Translations under genes and position numbers: made by a program
DNA from: an uncultured Christensenellaceae bacterium
GTDB taxonomy: Bacteria > Bacillota > Clostridia > Christensenellales > UBA3700
Length of the DNA stretch: 64,000 nt
Assembly (NCBI GenBank): GCA_944380305.1
Contig: CALWHF010000004.1
Coordinates: forward strand, 42,844-106,843
Direction: 5' to 3'
Part shown: one piece after another, positions 2,437-54,709 of the stretch
Layout of the letters: every line of letters begins with the position of its first letter
Position numbering within the stretch: the first letter of the stretch is position 1
The notes under the pieces: model-generated
The model's database searches: none
Told to the model about the DNA's origin: nothing
The model's input: only the letters and a program-made list of their open reading frames with translations

Positions 2437-3237
2437 ATGACGGACAGAATCAGGAAATATAAAGTCTATATATGCGAAGTGCTGCTTTTTGCGGCCCTTC
2501 TCGCGGTAGATCTCATATCCAAGAGCGCGGCTTTCGATTTTCTCGGAAGTCAAGGCGGGAGCTACGTCGTTTTCGACGGTATTTACGAGCTCGTCGAAGT
2601 GCACAACGACGGCGCGTCTTTCGGCATTTTCAGTGGTCAGACTGCCGTTCTCAGCATATTCACGGCAATCGCTATGGCTGTTCTCGGAGCGGTTTTATTG
2701 TGGAGACCGAAGTCGCCCAGGCTTTTCAGGCTGGGGGTTATTGCGATAATTGCGGGCGGCGTAGGCAATCTCGTGGACAGGCTCGCATTCGGTTACGTCC
2801 GCGATTTTATCGATTATAAATTCCTCGAAACTTTCTTCGGGATAAAGAATTTCGGGGTCGGAAACGTCGCTGACATATTCGTGCTCGTAGGGTTGCTTTG
2901 CATAGTCGTATACGTCTTTTTCGGATACAAAGAGGGCGATTTTGCCAAAGAACCGCACCATTCGGATACGCTTCCCGACGCGCTCGTGGTAAACGAAGGA
3001 GAAGAGAAAAAAGACAAGAAAAAAGAAGAGAAGGAAGGCGTCGTCTCGTTTGTCGACGAAAGCGTGAACGGGGGTTCTGCAGCCGTCGAAGAGAAGCCAT
3101 CTGTTGAAAACAACGAGGCAGACATTGTTTCGGAAAACGTTCAGACGAAAAAAGGTCAGAAACCCGCAAAATCGCGTCGTAATTCTGCCTCAAACGACCG
3201 CGGGAGATCCGCTGCGGCGAAGGACGGGGTCAGATGA
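2437..3237 (+). CDS. lspA: Lipoprotein signal peptidase II with a ~100-aa charged C-terminal extension
   Basis: GNLVDRLAFGYVRDFIDY and NVADIF motifs plus 4 hydrophobic helices. Followed by rluD, as in Bacillus. Confidence 0.85.
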   Translation: MTDRIRKYKVYICEVLLFAALLAVDLISKSAAFDFLGSQGGSYVVFDGIYELVEVHNDGASFGIFSGQTAVLSIFTAIAMAVLGAVLLWRPKSPRLFRLGVIAIIAGGVGNLVDRLAFGYVRDFIDYKFLETFFGIKNFGVGNVADIFVLVGLLCIVVYVFFGYKEGDFAKEPHHSDTLPDALVVNEGEEKKDKKKEEKEGVVSFVDESVNGGSAAVEEKPSVENNEADIVSENVQTKKGQKPAKSRRNSASNDRGRSAAAKDGVR

Positions 3238-10613: not shown

Positions 10614-11288
10614 ATGTCATTTTCAAATAATTGCAAATCTGAAAGGATACCGGGACCGATAAGAGGAAACGCTCTTTCCGGAATTTGCGAAAAGACTTGC
10701 ATACAGGCAGAAAAGGTTTTCGACGCGTGCATGAGTCAGAGCTCCATGTCCGATCTGCAGCTCACCGTCACGGACGTTACGCCGACCGATCTTACCGCTC
10801 CGTATAAGTTTGTCAGCGCAAAGTCCTCTTCGACCGCGGCGCAGATAACCGATCTGACCGTGACGGATATACCCGAGGACAGCTGCTACGCGAGGGTGAC
10901 CTGCAATGTTCAGATACCCGTGACGGTCACTTTTACCGACGCGAACGGCAAGACCGGTACGGGCATCGCTACCGTCACCGTGCCGAAAGACGTGATACTG
11001 CACGTTTCCACGCCCAGCGTGATTCCGTATTCGATACAGGCGACCGTCGGATTCGTGGCATCGCAGGGCAGCTATACCGCGGACGATCAGTTTACTGTGA
11101 CAGGCTGTGCGACCGTTATACTCAAGGTGACAATGCCTGTGGATCTTCTCGTGCCCAGCTACGGATATTGCTATATCCCGCCGTGCAGAGAATACACTCA
11201 GCAGGTATGCGAGGGCGTTTTCGATCTTCCGCTGTATCCGCAGGAGTGCGGCGAGGATTGCAGATGCGGCTCTCGTCTCAAAGGCTGA
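10614..11288 (+). CDS. Hypothetical Cys-rich, beta-rich protein (candidate spore coat or outer-layer structural protein)
   Basis: 224 aa with a strong AAAGGAGGA Shine-Dalgarno. Has 13 Cys clustered at both termini, a T/V-rich middle, and no signal peptide or TM helix. I do not recognise a family. Confidence 0.6.
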   Translation: MSFSNNCKSERIPGPIRGNALSGICEKTCIQAEKVFDACMSQSSMSDLQLTVTDVTPTDLTAPYKFVSAKSSSTAAQITDLTVTDIPEDSCYARVTCNVQIPVTVTFTDANGKTGTGIATVTVPKDVILHVSTPSVIPYSIQATVGFVASQGSYTADDQFTVTGCATVILKVTMPVDLLVPSYGYCYIPPCREYTQQVCEGVFDLPLYPQECGEDCRCGSRLKG

Positions 11289-11686: not shown

Positions 11687-12406
11687 ATGAAAGTTTTTAG
11701 TATAAGTGATCTGCATCTCGGCAAACGCTGCGACAAGCCGATGGATATATTCGGTGACGGTTGGGGCGGATACTGGGACAATATACGGGAGGATTGGAGA
11801 AACCGCGTAGGAGAGGACGACGTTGTAGTGATCGCGGGAGATATATCCTGGGCAATGAAACTCGAGGATGCGTTGCCCGATATTGACGAGATCGCTGAAC
11901 TTCCCGGGAAGAAGGTGATTCTTCGCGGAAACCACGACTATTGGTGGCAGTCTTACGGCAAACTTACAGACGCGCTTCCGCCCGATATGTACGCCGTGCA
12001 GAACAATGCCGTCAGGATAGGGGATCTTCTCGTGTGCGGCAGCAGGTTGTGGAATCTCGGAGCGGGAGGCGAGCACGACAAAGCCATGATAAACAGGGAA
12101 GCCGTGAGGCTGAGACTTGCGCTGGAAGATGCGCGTCGTCAGAGAAAAGAGGGCGACAAGCTGGTCGTTGCCGTGCATTATCCTCCGTTTGACGCCTCGT
12201 TTGCCGATTCGTTATATACTGACATTATTGCCGAATACGATGCGGACGCCGTGGTTTACGGGCATCTTCACGGCAAAGACGTCAGAGTGAAAAGGTTGAT
12301 AAACAAAAACGGCGTAAACTATTATCTTACGTCGTGCGATCTCGTAGGGTATAAATTGGTGGAATTGCCCGAACCGAGCGATCGACGCCCTGGAGACTTG
12401 AAATAA
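11687..12406 (+). CDS. Calcineurin-like metallophosphoesterase
   Basis: SDLHLG, GDISW, RGNHDYW and GHLHG metal-ligand motifs appear in the canonical order. Confidence 0.8.
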   Translation: MKVFSISDLHLGKRCDKPMDIFGDGWGGYWDNIREDWRNRVGEDDVVVIAGDISWAMKLEDALPDIDEIAELPGKKVILRGNHDYWWQSYGKLTDALPPDMYAVQNNAVRIGDLLVCGSRLWNLGAGGEHDKAMINREAVRLRLALEDARRQRKEGDKLVVAVHYPPFDASFADSLYTDIIAEYDADAVVYGHLHGKDVRVKRLINKNGVNYYLTSCDLVGYKLVELPEPSDRRPGDLK

Positions 12407-12456
12407 TATCGGCTATCGGTTGCCGCGCTCGTTGCGGCTGAGTTCTTTCGGGTTTA

Positions 12457-12487
12457 GCGGCACGCTTATTTTGCGTGCCGTTTTTTG
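12457..12487 (+). terminator. Rho-independent terminator after the phosphoesterase gene
   Basis: GCGGCACGC pairs with GCGTGCCG, followed by T7. Confidence 0.75.
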
Positions 12488-13198
12488 TCTGTCCGTAAGG
12501 ATTGCGATAAAATGTGATGCTCCCGACGATTTGAAAATAACCGACGTGAGGGGAGAGTCGGTTTGACGGTATTTATATTGATATTTAGCGCGCGTATATA
12601 TAAAGCGCGCGACGACGTTTTTAGACTACGAAAAATTTTACGCAAAATTTTATCGTATATTGTCGTATTTCTTCTCTAATTAAAAGAAAATTTCCTTCGA
12701 AAGAATTTCGTCGATAAGTTATTATTATCCGATGTTAAAAGTCTGTTCTCTTTGAAACGATGCACACGGCTCGGTGTGGTGTTCGCCGTTTTTTTGAGGC
12801 TTTTTATTTTGTCGGGAAAAAGGGGGCGGGCATCTCAAACAGAACCGTGTTTGAAAATCGCTATGTCTTAAAACAGTGTCGGGTTTAGTGTTTCGGGAAA
12901 TTGAAAACGGCAAAAAACGTATCGGAAACGCAATGAAAAAGGGAGATTTTTCCACGACTTGGGAAGAATCGGGAAAGAGTTTGAGAGTGCTTCGACCGAT
13001 GCGCGGCAAGTGCGACAGAAAAAGAGAGGAAACCGTATTGTTTACGCTTTGAAAACGCGGATATTTATAAAAACAGACCGCTATACGGGCGTGTCGGCAT
13101 GATCGGGGAAGAGCGTTTGCCGACGTGGCTTTTTTACACCTGCAAACTGTTATAGGAGCAAAATTATGGGAAATTCATGGGCGAAATTTCCACAAAAT

Positions 13199-13288
13199 GT
13201 AACAATTAGTAAATAATAGTAAAACATAGTAAATATAAGTAAAAATATGCAGCTGACAAGCAAGTAAAAACAAGTAAATTTTAGTAAA
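13199..13288 (+). repeat. 10-bp-phased array of eight (A/T)AGTAA(A) boxes
   Basis: GTAA starts at 13199, 13209, 13219, 13229 and 13239 (exact 10-bp phase). Further starts at 13264, 13274 and 13284 are also in 10-bp phase but offset by half a helical turn. Confidence 0.8.
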
Positions 13289-13312
13289 GATCAAAAAATC
13301 ATTTAATGCGAA

Positions 13313-13346
13313 CAAGTGTTTACATTTGCAAGTGGAAATTTGTGGA
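13313..13346 (+). promoter_or_regulatory. Candidate MraZ operator (GTG[G/T] boxes abutting the -35)
   Basis: caAGTGTt (13313-13320), caAGTGGa (13329-13336) and ttTGTGGa (13339-13346). The last two are 10 bp apart. They resemble published MraZ direct-repeat boxes (TGGGN in E. coli, AAAGTG[T/G] in mollicutes). Confidence 0.4.
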
Positions 13347-13353
13347 GATAATC

Positions 13354-13382
13354 TTGACATTCCTTTTTATACACGATAAAAT
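13354..13382 (+). promoter_or_regulatory. Sigma-A promoter of the dcw cluster (Pmra)
   Basis: TTGACA (13354-13359), 17-nt spacer, TAAAAT (13377-13382). An AAAGGAGGT Shine-Dalgarno and the mraZ start follow. Confidence 0.55.
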
Positions 13383-13416
13383 AAAAGTACAAATTCAGCA
13401 AAGGAGGTAATGCGCC

Positions 13417-13872
13417 ATGATGATGTCAGGTATGATAACGCTTCAGGTCGACCCGAAGGGCAGACTCAGAATACCGTCTAAGTACAGACCGTCTCTCGGC
13501 GAAGAAGGCAGCAAGATCTACGCAATGATCAACAGCAACGGCTGTCTGAACATTATCTCTCAGGAAAAGGCAAACGGCATAATCTCAAAACTCTCGTCGG
13601 TCGTTTCGATCGCGGTCACCGAAAAGTCCACCGCGGCGCGTCTGATACTCAGCAGCGTATGCGAGCTCACCGAGGACGGACAGGGCAGATTCACTTTGCC
13701 GCCTATGCTGAAGAAGTTTGCGGGCATATCCAAAAACGTCGTTTTCGCAGGTATGGGCAATTCGCTCGAACTGTGGGACGCGGATAAGTGGGAGGCTCTG
13801 CACAGCATCGTCAACGATCCCGACGAATTCCGTGCGGCGGTCGCAAGTCTCGAGGACATACTCAGTATATGA
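13417..13872 (+). CDS. mraZ: Transcriptional regulator MraZ
   Basis: Two SpoVT/AbrB-like halves: DPKGRLRIPSKYR and DGQGRFTLPPMLKKFAGI. First gene of the dcw cluster. Start could be 13417, 13420 or 13423. Confidence 0.9.
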   Translation: MMMSGMITLQVDPKGRLRIPSKYRPSLGEEGSKIYAMINSNGCLNIISQEKANGIISKLSSVVSIAVTEKSTAARLILSSVCELTEDGQGRFTLPPMLKKFAGISKNVVFAGMGNSLELWDADKWEALHSIVNDPDEFRAAVASLEDILSI

Positions 13873-27601: not shown

Positions 27602-28384
27602 ATGCAAATATACATAGAGTATGTGATCGCGGACAATATGGCGGTCAACCTGCTGCTGATATACGCGACGACCCTCACTCTGAGGCGTAAATTCGCATGT
27701 TTCAGGGCATTTCTCGCGGCGGGCGCGGGAACTGTATTCGCAGTCATCATGCCGCTATACGAGATCAAGGCACTCTTTCTCGCAAAGATCGTTCTTGCGC
27801 TGGCGATGGCACTGATAATGCTGAAACACAAGGACGCGAAAAGCTATGCGAAGTGCCTCTCGATTTTCCTGCTGTATACCTTTCTCGCAGGAGGGATCTG
27901 CGTCGCGATTCTGGGCGCAAACGACGGATTTATCGCATTGAAAGACCCTGACGATTACACTCCCGCGGTAGTCGCCGTCGCCGCGCTTATATGTCTTTTT
28001 ACCGCAAAAAAAGTCGTTGGTTACGTCACTCTGGCGCGAAGGGAACAAAAGTACGTCACAAGCGTAAAAGTGGTCATTGCGGGAGAATGTATAGAATGCA
28101 AGGGCTACCGTGACAGCGGGAACAAACTTTACTACAAAGGCATCGTGCCCGTCGTGGTTTCCGACGCCGATTTCGTCAAGAAGATACACAATATCGACAA
28201 GGCGGAAAAGGTCGAAGGTATAAAGCTGACCACAGTGGCGGGGAGCAAGACGATAAACGGATTTGTCGCCGACGAGCTGACGATCTCGGAAGAGAGCGGC
28301 GAAAAGCGTTTCGACAATGTGATAATAGGCGTGGGAGAGGGCAAATTCAAAGGTTTTTCCTTGCTTCTCAATTGCGATTTATAG
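27602..28384 (+). CDS. spoIIGA: Sigma-E processing peptidase SpoIIGA
   Basis: N-terminal membrane domain (MQIYIEYV...), a C-terminal aspartic-protease-like DSGN motif ([10 protein letters not shown]), and position directly upstream of sigE. Confidence 0.85.
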
Positions 28385-28392
28385 GAGGAAAT

Positions 28393-29103
28393 ATGCTGAA
28401 AAAGATACTCGGCTTTCTGAAAAAGCTGTTTTCGTCGCCTCTTGCCGAGGACGACGGAGTGGACTATCTGAACGGCGGGGAGACTTTGCCCGCGCCTCTC
28501 GCGGCGGACGAAGAGAAAGAACTCGTCGAAAAACTCGCCGCGGGAGACAGGCAGGCGAGAGAAAAGCTGATCGAACACAACCTCAGACTGGTCGTGTACA
28601 TTGCAAAAAAATTCGACTCGTCGAACGTGGACATCGACGATCTGATAAGCGTCGGCACGATAGGGCTGATCAAGGCTGTCAATTCTTTCGACGGCGCGAA
28701 ACAGATAAAACTGGCTACTTACGCCAGCAGATGTATCGAAAACGAGATTTTGATGCACCTGAGAAAAGTCGTCCGCACAAAGAGCGAGATGTCTCTCGAC
28801 GAGCCGCTCAACGTGGACTGGGAGGGGAACGTCCTTCTTCTGTCTGACGTACTGGGCACAGACAGCGACGTTACCTGCAAGGACGTGGAAACAGACGAAG
28901 AAAAGGATATACTCATAAAGACGTTCAAGAGACTGCCGCCGCGCGAAAGACAGATCGTCAGGCTACGTTTCGGTTTGCTCGGCGCGCAGAAAAAGACGCA
29001 GAAAGAGATAGCGGATTTGATGGGAATATCCCAGTCGTACATATCGCGTCTCGAAAAAAAGGTTATGAAAAAGCTGAAAAAAGAACTGACGAAAAGCGTA
29101 TAA
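28393..29103 (+). CDS. sigE: Sporulation sigma factor E (pro-sigma-E)
   Basis: Pro-sequence followed by [43 protein letters not shown] and [13 protein letters not shown] all closely track the B. subtilis SigE sequence as I remember it. Confidence 0.92.
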
Positions 29104-29170
29104 AGCCGTCGATAAAGTAAAGAATAACTACGGGAAGGTGCACTGTATCGCGTTACATACGGAGGTGAAT

Positions 29171-29938
29171 ATGGTGCACAAAGTGGTTATATGCGGCGTG
29201 GATACCAACACGCTGCCGAAACTCAGCAAAGAACAATCCCAGAAATTGATGGAGCGCGCGAAAAGCGGCGACAAAAACGCGAGAGACGAACTTGTCGAAG
29301 CTAATATACGACTGGTACTGTCCGTCGTGCAGAGGTTCAACAACAAAGGCAACAGCGACGACCTGTTTCAGGTCGGCATCGTGGGACTTCTCAAGGCGAT
29401 AGACAATTTCGACGACAGATTCAACGTGCGGTTTTCGACCTATGCCGTGCCTATGATAATAGGCGAGATCAGACGTTTTCTCAAGGACGGAACAGGTATA
29501 AAGGTCAGCAGAAGCATGCGCGATACGGCGTACAAAGTGCTCAGGGCAAAAGAGGAAATAGAGAAGAAAAGGCAGATCACGCCTACCGCGGTCGAGATCG
29601 CGGAGGAGATAGACATGCCGATAAAAGAAGTCGTCTGCGCGCTCGACGCTGTCAGCGAACCCGTATACCTTCAGGAGCCGGTCTTCAACGACGGCGAAGA
29701 GGGAATGGTTCTCGAAGAACAGATCGGCGACAGCAAGAATACAGAGGAGAGATGGACGGATAAGATATGCATATCCGACGCTATCGCGGATCTTCCCGAA
29801 AAGGAGAGAAAAGTGCTTGTTCTGAGGTATTATTACGGCAAGACGCAGACAGAGATCTCGAAACAGATCAATATCTCTCAGGCACAGGTCAGCAGGCTGG
29901 AGAAAAACGCGCTTGCAAAGATGAAAGCGTACTTTTAA
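29171..29938 (+). CDS. sigG: Sporulation sigma factor G
   Basis: ICGVDTNTLPKL, NIRLVLSVVQRFNN, FSTYAVPMIIGEIRRFLKD and ISQAQVSRLEK closely track B. subtilis SigG. Confidence 0.92.
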   Translation: MVHKVVICGVDTNTLPKLSKEQSQKLMERAKSGDKNARDELVEANIRLVLSVVQRFNNKGNSDDLFQVGIVGLLKAIDNFDDRFNVRFSTYAVPMIIGEIRRFLKDGTGIKVSRSMRDTAYKVLRAKEEIEKKRQITPTAVEIAEEIDMPIKEVVCALDAVSEPVYLQEPVFNDGEEGMVLEEQIGDSKNTEERWTDKICISDAIADLPEKERKVLVLRYYYGKTQTEISKQINISQAQVSRLEKNALAKMKAYF

Positions 29939-30007
29939 GTTTTCGCGGTTTTGCGAAATTTGTCATAATTTGGCGACGCCTCCCGTACATTATCGGGAGG
30001 TGTTGTT

Positions 30008-30283
30008 ATGTTGAACGATCTTACTTTTTGCGAACTCAAAGAAAAAGAAGTGGTCAATGTGATTGACGGCAGAAGACTGGGGAGACTTCTCGACATCGCT
30101 TTTACCCCGGGCGGAAAGATAACGGGGCTGATAGTGCCGGGGGAAAAGAAGTTTTTGAAAAACATTACCTGCTCGGACAGCATTTTCGTGCCGTGGAGAT
30201 GTATCGTCAGGATCGGCGAAGACGCGATCCTTGTCGAACTTTCGGACAACGTGCCGCCGCCGCCCGCGAAATGCGATTGCTGA
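30008..30283 (+). CDS. ylmC: YlmC/YmxH-family sporulation protein (PRC-barrel)
   Basis: 91 aa. FCELKEKEVVNVIDGRRLG....D..F....GKI.GLIVPG is the family pattern. Lies downstream of sigG, as in Bacillus. Confidence 0.8.
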   Translation: MLNDLTFCELKEKEVVNVIDGRRLGRLLDIAFTPGGKITGLIVPGEKKFLKNITCSDSIFVPWRCIVRIGEDAILVELSDNVPPPPAKCDC

Positions 30284-30347
30284 ACGTCTCGAGAGCGATC
30301 GGACCCCGACGTGTCAGAGGGCAGAACGTTCTGTTTAGCGTACATGC

Positions 30348-30376
30348 TGGACAACCGCCGCAATATGTTGTATAAT
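30348..30376 (+). promoter_or_regulatory. Sigma-A-like promoter upstream of nrdR
   Basis: TGGACA (30348-30353), 17-nt spacer, TATAAT (30371-30376). Confidence 0.45.
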
Positions 30377-30477
30377 TAATTAAATCGGAGCGGTCGTCGC
30401 GTCGACTCTGGCAACAAACAGAGGAGCCGAGATTTGCGACGATATGTCGTTCCGACCGAACAGCGGAGGTTTTGGTT

Positions 30478-30966
30478 ATGAAATGCGTATATTGCGGCTG
30501 CATGGACAGCAAGGTCATAGACAGCAGACTCAACGAGGACGGCACGTCGATAAGGCGCAGGAGAGAATGCGTCGCATGCGGCAAGCGTTTTACGACGTAC
30601 GAGACGATAGAGACCACGCCTATCATGGTCATCAAGAAGTCGGGTTGCAGGCAGATTTTCTCACCCGCGAAACTCAAGAACGGCATAATCAAAGCGTGCG
30701 ACAAACGTCCCGTCAGCATGCAGCAGATAGACAAGCTGGTCTCAGACATCGAGAAAAAACTCGCCAACGGACTGGAGCAGGAAGTCACGTCCGACTACAT
30801 CGGCGATCTCGTGATGGACGGGCTTAAGGAGATAGACGACGTCGCATACGTCAGATTCGCCGCCGTGCACAGGCAGTTCAAGGACATCAATTCCTGGCTC
30901 GGGGAGATCAACGAGATCCTGAAGAGCAAAAACGGGAAGTCCGACTGCAAAGACGACAAGAAATGA
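30478..30966 (+). CDS. nrdR: Transcriptional repressor NrdR
   Basis: MKCVYCG...SKVIDSR...RRRRECVACGKRFTTYE zinc ribbon followed by an ATP-cone. GGAGGT Shine-Dalgarno at 30465-30470. Confidence 0.92.
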   Translation: MKCVYCGCMDSKVIDSRLNEDGTSIRRRRECVACGKRFTTYETIETTPIMVIKKSGCRQIFSPAKLKNGIIKACDKRPVSMQQIDKLVSDIEKKLANGLEQEVTSDYIGDLVMDGLKEIDDVAYVRFAAVHRQFKDINSWLGEINEILKSKNGKSDCKDDKK

Positions 30967-53122: not shown

Positions 53123-54709
53123 ATGGCAGACACCAAAGATACCGAAAAGACAGGACAAAAGACAGATTTCATAAAGCTGCTCAATATTCGCTTTGACGGA
53201 GCGTACGACTTTCTGCGCGTGCGTTCGGTCGATCTCGATCTCGAACAGAAGACCGTCAGCGTTCAGATAGGTCTGCCGTACAGCGGAGAGAATACGCTTA
53301 CGGAAGAAGACAAAAGGAAGATATTATCGTTTGCCGTTGAGATATTGCCTTCGGAATACACGGTTTCGGTCAATTACAGAAAGTTCGGCGTCGATCCCGA
53401 GATAGTGTTCAAACTGGTAAAAGAGTACGTCAACAAGTATCACAGGGCGTATTCGGTTCTCATTTCAAGCGACAACGTGGATATAACGTGCACGGATACC
53501 GTCGTGACGGTAAAGATAACCGTCGTAAAGTCGGTCGCCGATCTGTTCGAAAAATGCGGACTCACTAAAGGACTGGAAGAATACCTCGATTCGTCGTACG
53601 ACAGAAAGAACGTCGTAAAGACAGAGTATACCGACAAACTGATCATTTCGGAGACCGCAAAGGAAGAAGTGCCTGTCGTGATCGACGATTGCTACATAGA
53701 GATAAGCGCGCTGCACAAACTGTGCGGGGGCGAGATCACTTCGAAAGCGCGCTATATAAGGGCATGCACCTCGCCTCAGAGTGCCGTATGCGTAACGGGA
53801 AAGGTCGAGAGCATCGTCGCGAGAAATTCGAAGACGTCGGGCAATCTCTATTACAATTTTACGATAAACGACACGACGGGGGCGATGAAGTGCTGTTACT
53901 TTACGAGAAAAGCCGCAAAAGGTCCGCTCGATATTCTCGAGGAAGGCGCGGAGATCGCGGTCGTCGGGGATCTTCAGACGGACAGTTTCCGCGGAGGACT
54001 CAATCTGATTGCGAAGAGCGTGAGTCTTTGCAGGATCAATTACTCGTCGATACTGACCGAGGAAGACCTGCGCCGCAAAAAAACATACGTTCCCGTAAAG
54101 GCAAAGCCTCTTGACATTACCACTCAGCAGGATATATTCGACATCGCGAGCGAAAAACCCGCATATCTCACGGATAACGACTTTGTCGTTTTCGACCTAG
54201 AGACCACGGGGCTTCTCGACAACGGTGTACCTTGCAAGATTATCGAGATAGGCGCGGTCAAGATAAAGAACGGCGTCTGCACCGAATATTTTTCCACGCT
54301 CGTAGACCCGAGAATGCATATTCCCGAAGGAGCGTCGGCGACCAATCATATATACGACGACATGGTCGAGGACGCGCCGTATATCGAGGACATTCTCCCC
54401 GATTTTCTCGCGTGGGTCGGGAATGCGACGCTTGTTGCTCACAACGGCAACAAATTCGACTTTATCGTACTGAAAAACGAGGCGGCGGAGCAGAATATGG
54501 TCGTACCGAATCGGACGAAAGACACGATCGTCATCGCCCAGGCGTACAGAGACAGGACGGGAAAGCGCGGGCAGCTCAATCTGCGCGTGCTTTGCAAGGA
54601 GTTCAATATCGAACTGGTAGAAGCGCACCGCGCGTATTACGACGCATACGCTACCGCGCAACTGTTCATCAGGCTGTGCGATTACGTTGACGTGTCGAGG
54701 ATAGGCTGA
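53123..54709 (+). CDS. PolC-like N-terminal domain + OB fold + DEDDh 3'-5' exonuclease, lacking PHP and polymerase domains
   Basis: 529 aa from ATG 53123 (alternative GTG at 53087). The OB-like segment VCVTGKVESIVARNSKTSGNLYYNFTINDTTGAMKCCYF...VVGDLQTDSFRGGLNLIAKSV parallels the B. subtilis PolC OB domain. Exo motifs FDLETTG, AHNGNKFDF and HRAYYDAYATAQL are present. Confidence 0.75.
   Translation: MADTKDTEKTGQKTDFIKLLNIRFDGAYDFLRVRSVDLDLEQKTVSVQIGLPYSGENTLTEEDKRKILSFAVEILPSEYTVSVNYRKFGVDPEIVFKLVKEYVNKYHRAYSVLISSDNVDITCTDTVVTVKITVVKSVADLFEKCGLTKGLEEYLDSSYDRKNVVKTEYTDKLIISETAKEEVPVVIDDCYIEISALHKLCGGEITSKARYIRACTSPQSAVCVTGKVESIVARNSKTSGNLYYNFTINDTTGAMKCCYFTRKAAKGPLDILEEGAEIAVVGDLQTDSFRGGLNLIAKSVSLCRINYSSILTEEDLRRKKTYVPVKAKPLDITTQQDIFDIASEKPAYLTDNDFVVFDLETTGLLDNGVPCKIIEIGAVKIKNGVCTEYFSTLVDPRMHIPEGASATNHIYDDMVEDAPYIEDILPDFLAWVGNATLVAHNGNKFDFIVLKNEAAEQNMVVPNRTKDTIVIAQAYRDRTGKRGQLNLRVLCKEFNIELVEAHRAYYDAYATAQLFIRLCDYVDVSRIG

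Follow-up and report, generated by a model that had tools for sequence, protein, structure and literature searches.

In the 64-kb stretch of DNA analysed here (the window), mraZ is followed by Pfam-confirmed dcw genes and preceded by a predicted sigma-A promoter and a series of upstream elements (Table 1). The most conspicuous of these is an array of AGTAAA boxes. Measured upstream, its distance is 129-209 bp from the mraZ ATG, 70-145 bp from the -35 and about 105-180 bp from the point where dcw transcription is predicted to start, and the sequence reads ...CCACAAAATGTAACAATTAGTAAATAATAGTAAAACATAGTAAATATAAGTAAAAATATGCAGCTGACAAGCAAGTAAAAACAAGTAAATTTTAGTAAAG... A LexA-like palindrome and a pair of GTGG boxes stand between the array and the promoter, and a further conserved block lies on the far side of the array.

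Table 1. Features upstream of and including mraZ, in window coordinates
Feature	Position	Strand	Remarks
Distal conserved block TGGG..TGGG-N4-AATTTCCAC	13166..13193	+	Upstream edge of the conserved regulatory module
D1, TGTAAC	13198..13203	+	Doubtful array box; probably right half of a degenerate NrdR-like box (TTTCCAC-N5-TGTAA)
Distal run D2-D5, four AGTAAA (13208, 13218, 13228, 13238)	13208..13243	+	Exact 10-bp spacing
Proximal run P1-P3, three AGTAAA (13263, 13273, 13283)	13263..13288	+	10-bp spacing
LexA/Cheo-box-like palindrome CGAACAAGTGTTTA	13309..13322		Includes AGTGT; 13/14 positions of CGAACRNRYGTTYC
GTGGAAATTTGTGG, two canonical MraZ-type boxes GTGG-N6-GTGG	13332..13345	+	Abuts the -35; box definition from PMC12957436
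Predicted sigma-A promoter TTGACA-17-TAAAAT	13354..13382	+	11/12 sigma-70-type match; conserved in 8 species
AAGTAC at predicted transcription start	13385..13390	+	Invariant in 8 species
mraZ	13417..13872	+	Pfam PF02381 and neighbouring genes

The AGTAAA array and its conservation

Seven exact AGTAAA boxes occur on the + strand within 81 bp upstream of the dcw promoter. GTAA starts on this strand at 13199, 13209, 13219, 13229 and 13239, then at 13264, 13274 and 13284, and the 25-bp shift between the two runs places the proximal one half a turn out of phase with the distal one. All eight starts of the phased GTAA/AGTAAA array in the preliminary description were confirmed, and the array is real. 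The count of eight AGTAAA boxes (five plus three) held for the seven exact ones and failed for the first, the TGTAAC at 13198 (D1). D1 is the least conserved box, with the variants TGTAC, TGAAT and CGTAT, and it probably forms part of the one degenerate NrdR-like box of the array lineage (TTTCCAC plus the TGTAA of D1), which carries five of the six key positions in five of eight species. Being half of such a box would explain why D1 is the odd one out. For both reasons, the robust array is four plus three rather than five plus three.

AGTAAA itself is not rare. Both strands of the window hold 25 copies, the number predicted by shuffles, so it is the clustering that is unusual. GTAA-N6-GTAA-N6-GTAA (at most one mismatch) occurs four times in the window, always in the array, where 0.17 occurrences were expected and none of 100 shuffles reached four. 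AGTAAA-N4-AGTAAA (at most two mismatches) has 13 matches against 4.2 expected, 7 of them in the array. Tandem Repeats Finder reports periods of 10 and 20 for the array.

A genome scan with the MraZ protein gave seven species-level, Christensenellaceae-type MAGs whose MraZ is 86-93% identical, and these together with the window make up our comparison of eight species. Conservation in relatives was one of the checks set by the preliminary description, and the upstream alignment bears it out: the boxes stay put while the spacers change. Relative to the -35, GTAA is fixed in all eight species at -155/-145/-135/-125/-115 and -90/-80/-70, as are GTG(G/T) at -38/-22/-12 and CCAC at -164. A logo drawn from the 64 boxes reads N-A-G-T-A-A-A-(A/T)-N-N, and with D1 left out its successive positions hold A at 84%, G at 84%, T at 93% and A at 98%, in a region whose background G content is 15%. 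Between species the boxes are conserved at 84-98% and the spacers at about 57%. Not all boxes of the distal run are equally strong: D2 and D4 are always AGTAA, and D3 and D5 are weaker, often ATTAAA or AATAAA. Cross-species DNA similarity has a sharp upstream edge at 13164-13172 and from there continues into mraZ with 73-78% identity, on a par with the coding gene next to it; the 750 bp preceding this module show no conservation between species.

The array extends to more distant relatives. In a clade whose MraZ is 71% identical (L011-L013), the proximal three boxes keep their positions relative to the -35, and a four-box distal run lies 11 bp closer than in the window, so that the two runs still differ in phase by 4-5 bp. 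One further contig, with MraZ 67% identical (L014), begins inside an array. No relatives with MraZ 52-65% identical exist in the searched collection. The array is absent upstream of mraZ in seven other Christensenellales with MraZ 40-52% identical (L139-L144 and L016). On the genomes compared, the AGTAAA array is restricted to one Christensenellaceae clade.

Variation within the species follows the same pattern. Ten other contigs encode an identical MraZ protein, and the 11 conspecific sequences have eight variable sites in 13199-13290, none of which falls in an AGTAAA hexamer. Calculated from the site positions, the probability that all eight would miss the hexamers at random is about 0.003-0.008. 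No gain or loss of repeat copies was seen among the 11 sequences. As far as sequence comparison can tell, selection maintains the boxes and not the spacers, and the array is a genuine operator-like element.

The dcw promoter and its other candidate inputs

The operator of MraZ is thought to consist of three or four GTG(G/T) boxes. AGTGT at 13315, AGTGG at 13331, TGTGG at 13341 and TTGACA at 13354 are all as first described, and the GTGG boxes have kept their standing as the natural MraZ operator. GTGG-N6-GTGG occurs once in the window, is invariant in the eight species and is also found beside TTGACA in relatives with MraZ 45-52% identical. The array-less relatives share a common proximal layout of GAACATATGTT(T/C), then GTGG-N6-GTGG, then TTGACA, and the two most distant of them (MraZ 40-45% identical) have three boxes, GTGG/ATGG/GTGG. 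Because this layout is common to relatives without the array, the GTGG pair is, by comparative sequence, the ancestral, canonical MraZ operator. The AAGTAC element just past the -10 is also present in one array-less relative (L141).

The GTGG pair has a counterpart beyond the array. Within the distal block, in which GGG and AAT(T/A)TCCAC are conserved in the eight species, AAATTTCCAC forms an inverted repeat of 10 nt, without a mismatch (100% complementary), with GTGGAAATTT at 13332-13341, and the two bracket the array. They may be an inverted pair of MraZ or DnaA-type boxes that could loop the DNA. In six of the eight species, TGTGGATAT (TGTGGAGAT in the window, 13341-13349) matches the DnaA box TTATCCACA at 8/9 positions in reverse complement, and in B. 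subtilis DnaA reportedly binds the ftsL/yllB promoter (PMC8203912). Given this likeness and this precedent, the GTGG pair could double as DnaA boxes. DnaA boxes were rejected as a reading of the array, as AGTAAA units share just 3/6 positions with the DnaA core.

The AGTGT had been listed alongside the GTGG boxes, and as a third MraZ-type box it does not hold up. It lies 16 bp, not 10, from the next box, and it forms the centre of the LexA-like palindrome CGAACAAGTGTTTA. The Gram-positive LexA/Cheo consensus is CGAACRNRYGTTYC (PMC2248561). GAACAAGTGTTT is invariant in the eight species, relatives have GAACATATGTT(T/C) at the same place, and in one of these (L143) the core is perfect (GAACATATGTTC). 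Matches to GAAC-N4-GTTY are no commoner in the window than chance would allow (5 against 6.7 expected); the others include one at 54081, which is intragenic, and further ones at 3066 and 37125. From the conserved candidate LexA-type box it would seem that, across Christensenellales, the SOS response acts directly on the dcw promoter.

NrdR is regarded as a dedicated regulator of ribonucleotide reductase genes, so that its acting on the division cluster would be out of the ordinary. Four array-less relatives (L139, L140, L142 and L143), and L141 as well, nevertheless have NrdR-type boxes upstream of mraZ, such as ACACAATATATTGTGT and CCACAATATATTGTGG; in the first four these lie in the slot of the array, about 60-120 bp upstream of the mraZ -35. 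Boxes of the ACACAATATATTGTGT type carry all six of the key positions of an NrdR box, which are C4, A6, A8, T9, T11 and G13 (PMC13584703). L143 has two, with starts 31 bp apart, the canonical spacing of a pair. NrdR boxes were rejected as a reading within the array lineage, where the single degenerate one at TTTCCAC and D1 is all that was found. With the array slot taken by NrdR-type boxes in relatives, the promoter would act as a multi-input hub, a point in favour of a separate regulator at the array. These candidate sites suggest that the Christensenellales dcw promoter integrates LexA-type and NrdR-type inputs beside MraZ, an arrangement that would tie DNA damage and nucleotide supply to division.

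Candidate readers of the array

The best explanation we can offer, and one we hold tentatively, is that the array serves as the operator of a second, non-MraZ regulator that binds in tandem. The AGTAAA array would then be a lineage-specific cis-regulatory operator in which every box serves as the half-site of a single protein subunit that reads the major groove. Subunits would line up head-to-tail at 10-bp spacing, four in one run and three in the other, on roughly opposite faces of the helix, and the predicted intrinsic bend may help. Once bound, this complex would modulate the sigma-A promoter in concert with two other proteins, MraZ on the GTGG pair and a LexA-type repressor on CGAACAAGTGTTTA. 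Binding by a protein, the identity of that protein and the direction of its effect on the promoter are inferences here. The box-reading protein is most likely not MraZ, and its best candidate would be a winged-helix response regulator of the OmpR/PhoB family.

A hallmark of OmpR/PhoB-type regulators is the head-to-tail array with a 10-11 bp repeat and A/T-rich spacers, and multi-repeat arrays of the ArcA, PhoP and OmpR type are examples. In Bacillota the essential system for cell wall and division is WalRK. Our array has the format of the family (5-7 bp cores at 10-11 bp), with a core of 6-7 bp in direct repeats of 10-bp period. It resembles OmpR/PhoB tandem sites in half-site sequence, head-to-tail spacing of 10-11 bp, A/T-rich spacers, multiple upstream copies and the alternation of strong and weak half-sites, and envelope or cell-wall signalling on division genes would fit. 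The consensus of CpxR is GTAAA-N5-6-GTAAA (PMC9600279) and the S. aureus WalR motif is TGTHH-N6-WGTNDD (PMC10746227). What makes OmpR/PhoB the best candidate family is that the boxes are identical to the CpxR half-site GTAAA at N5 and satisfy WGTNDD of WalR; [A/T]GTAAA fits TGTHH as well, and the N6 spacing of WalR is not found. WalR sites have a period of 11 bp whereas the array has one of 10 bp, and CpxR is proteobacterial. Unlike OmpR/PhoB tandem sites, the array includes an odd-numbered run of boxes and is the single target site seen in the window. That an OmpR/PhoB-type response regulator specifically binds the array accounts for the larger part of our preference for a second regulator, and taken alone we think it possible though rather unlikely.

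The distal run combines alternating strong and weak boxes with a Tandem Repeats Finder period of 20. The alternation suggests that dimers might sit on 20-bp units, rather than equivalent subunits on every box. Three half-sites in the proximal run are awkward for dimers and count against a second regulator, as does the fact that the format, the orientation and the placement of the array at mraZ are those of known MraZ operators. Pfam scans of 30 of the larger ORFs of the window, the dcw surroundings included, turned up neither a response regulator nor any other candidate. The array motif has no further site in the 64-kb window, so no regulon is visible there. A metagenome scan with AGTAAA-N4-AGTAAA-N4-AGTAA returned at least 120 stretches. 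Most of those listed were (AGTAA)n microsatellites or tandem repeats of no relation, and tblastn found no mraZ locus among them. Two human-gut contigs (L029, at 552-660, and L036) carry ACAGTAAA boxes at 10-bp spacing that overlap a TTGACA-17-TAAAAT promoter; this promoter precedes an AAA-ATPase-like gene and is an unrelated case of a GTAAA-type phased operator.

A close competitor is MraZ itself. The array may be an auxiliary, low-affinity MraZ operator, a reading that we consider possible but doubtful. MraZ would nucleate at the GTGG pair, and when it is concentrated the free heads of the same oligomer, or a filament, would fill the three-box and four-box runs; the wrapped or bridged complex would sharpen the autoregulation of the dcw promoter. 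Much of what has been described for MraZ is compatible with this. Its boxes consist of GTG(G/T) plus six spacer bases, three being usual and four occurring in some Mycoplasma, and four subunits occupy four boxes (PMC12957436). MraZ forms fibre-like assemblies on concatenated boxes, tolerates altered spacing and has spare DNA-binding heads (PMC12957436). The repeat has also been given as (AAAGTGKN3)3, and M. gallisepticum MraZ binds a related GTG repeat of different spacing (PMC5282649). Both the assemblies with their spacing tolerance and the M. gallisepticum case favour an auxiliary operator here. The location does too, as do exact 10-bp direct repeats oriented like the GTGG boxes, in runs of three and four that match known operators, and the motif is found at no other promoter in the 64 kb.

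At the level of single bases the comparison is close in some respects. The array unit AAGTAAAAAT differs from the canonical M1 unit AAGTGGAAAT solely by a change of GG to AA. K13, R15 and R86 contact the T-G-T/G signature of the MraZ box (PMC12957436). With the G-T of the array set on positions 3-4 of GTGK, both arginine-contacted bases (R15, R86) are kept, several boxes have TGT variants, and the proximal run (13264/74/84) stands in exact 10-bp register with the third base of both GTGG boxes (13334/44). The contact loops DPKGR and DGQGR are present in the MraZ encoded here, and alignment to the M. genitalium and M. pneumoniae structures bears out the equivalence to K13, R15 and R86.

Like MraZ operators, the array occupies the mraZ/dcw promoter region and has at least three direct repeats at 10 bp. 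Its boxes lack GTG(G/T) or TGGG, with no TG step in the 64-box logo and no GTGG or GTGA variant, and a GTG(G/T) core is found solely in the separate pair at 13332-13345. The array is not in the canonical MraZ-box family on account of this core. No register gives AGTAAA the TG core that every described MraZ box shares. Where MraZ boxes allow either G or T, 57 of the 64 array boxes have T and none has G, and the A at -1 is specifically kept (84%). The reading loops, DPKGRLRIP and EDGQGRF, are close to the DEKGRLRIP and EDGQGRF of an MraZ (P0014) with a canonical three-box operator and no array. An altered MraZ reading head was looked for and not found, the loops of the two proteins being essentially the same. 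Register and box strength also tell against MraZ: in each of the two clades the runs stand 4-5 bp out of mutual register, the clade whose MraZ is 71% identical misses the register of the GTGG pair by 1 bp, and strong and weak boxes alternate in the distal run.

Set beside the described operators (TGGGN three times in E. coli, GTGG[A/T]G three times in B. subtilis and (AAAGTGKN3) three to four times in Mollicutes, all at the mraZ/dcw promoter), the array shares 10-bp direct repeats in runs of three and four, gene orientation and A-rich flanks. It differs in that AGTAAA has no TG or GTG core and that its seven boxes form two out-of-register runs. The array stands 70-145 bp upstream of the -35, whereas MraZ repeats stand on the core promoter, and a canonical GTGG pair is present in addition. 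We found no report of AGTAAA repeats linked to mraZ in the literature searched. The array may still work as canonical MraZ boxes do. For MraZ to read a second class of box here, with four plus three weak boxes, two canonical boxes and the inverted GTGG at 13190-13193, seems possible but doubtful on these data. If it did, occupancy by a single opened or bridging oligomer, or by a filament, would depend on MraZ concentration, a higher-order autoregulatory switch undescribed for any MraZ. The preliminary description had proposed both a second MraZ operator and a site for another oligomeric regulator, and as judged from the boxes the choice leans slightly to the other regulator.

Its third proposal was structural, with a phased A-tract bend acting as an upstream activating or architectural sequence and no dedicated protein reading the boxes. 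The curvature part of this proposal was upheld by prediction. About 94% of boxes carry AAA(A/T), the A-tracts are in helical phase, and a wedge model with Bolshoy/Trifonov parameters predicts that the 40-bp distal run is strongly bent, by ~66 degrees. This is the 99.9th percentile of the window, against 41 +/- 12 degrees for mononucleotide shuffles of the region, and array-bearing relatives reach 48-78 degrees in the same model. As a full explanation the bend falls short, since the G (84%) and T (93%) 5' of the A-runs are as well conserved as the A's where background G is 15%, polymorphisms stay out of the entire hexamer, and relatives without the array are similarly curved (52-66 degrees, wedge model). 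The proximal run adds little net bend because of its half-turn offset (74 degrees over 90 bp, the 96.6th percentile). The modelled curvature is probably real, but not by itself the selected property, and we judge a purely structural role improbable.

Two known systems help to place this reading. The C. perfringens plc promoter has curved upstream DNA made of phased A-tracts, and it resembles the array in its helically phased A-runs upstream of a sigma-A promoter and in strong predicted curvature. The array differs from it in that G and T are selected, in lying further upstream and in having two runs half a turn apart. R1 parC is an iteron-type centromere of 5+5 11-bp repeats bound by ribbon-helix-helix proteins. 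It shares with the array two clusters of ~10-11-bp direct repeats near a promoter, and parC is bound cooperatively; the array belongs to a chromosomal housekeeping promoter with no partition genes nearby, so the likeness is one of layout only.

Finally, the array could be a functionless, neutral remnant of a 10- or 20-bp tandem duplication, which would give exact periodicity for free and agree with the Tandem Repeats Finder periods of 10 and 20; this very improbable reading is strongly disfavoured, as the array is old (common to species with diverged spacers and flanks and to a clade with MraZ 71% identical), its boxes are conserved where spacers are not, and conspecifics vary neither in copy number nor in the boxes. 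An Rfam scan of 12300-13500 gave just two sub-threshold chance matches, and an RNA role is unlikely because no conserved promoter lies upstream of the array. In a comparison by eye with consensus sequences, the distal block was rejected as a sigma-H promoter for misfits of spacing and -10, and Spo0A, CtsR and CodY boxes did not fit.

The locus is a well-conserved, lineage-specific extension of the mraZ regulatory region, and it offers two clean alternatives: a second, weak-box mode of MraZ, or a second tandem-binding regulator that feeds the dcw promoter and would plausibly be an envelope-sensing response regulator. It could widen what is known of MraZ or bring to light a further input to the dcw promoter. 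Sequence analysis establishes the boxes and how they are phased, their conservation both among species and inside one, their restriction to one lineage and the promoter architecture around them. The account as a whole is a good hypothesis generator rather than a discovery.

Genomic surroundings

A 750-bp non-coding stretch (12407-13163) separates the conserved module from a metallophosphoesterase gene. It contains terminator-like hairpins at 12456-12482 and 12772-12788 and has no Rfam match. Between engB and the metallophosphoesterase gene, 10614-11288 encodes a cysteine-rich protein of 224 aa with no Pfam match. A gene of the same size occupies the same place in one relative with the array (L011) and is absent in one without it (L140), a comparison of very few genomes.

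Downstream of ftsZ, 27602-30966 holds spoIIGA, sigE and sigG, followed by nrdR (30479-30966). Upstream of nrdR, an NrdR-like box, CCGCAATATGTTGTAT, overlaps a TATAAT at 30358-30375. In a genome of Christensenellaceae type, so complete a sporulation sigma cascade is noteworthy.
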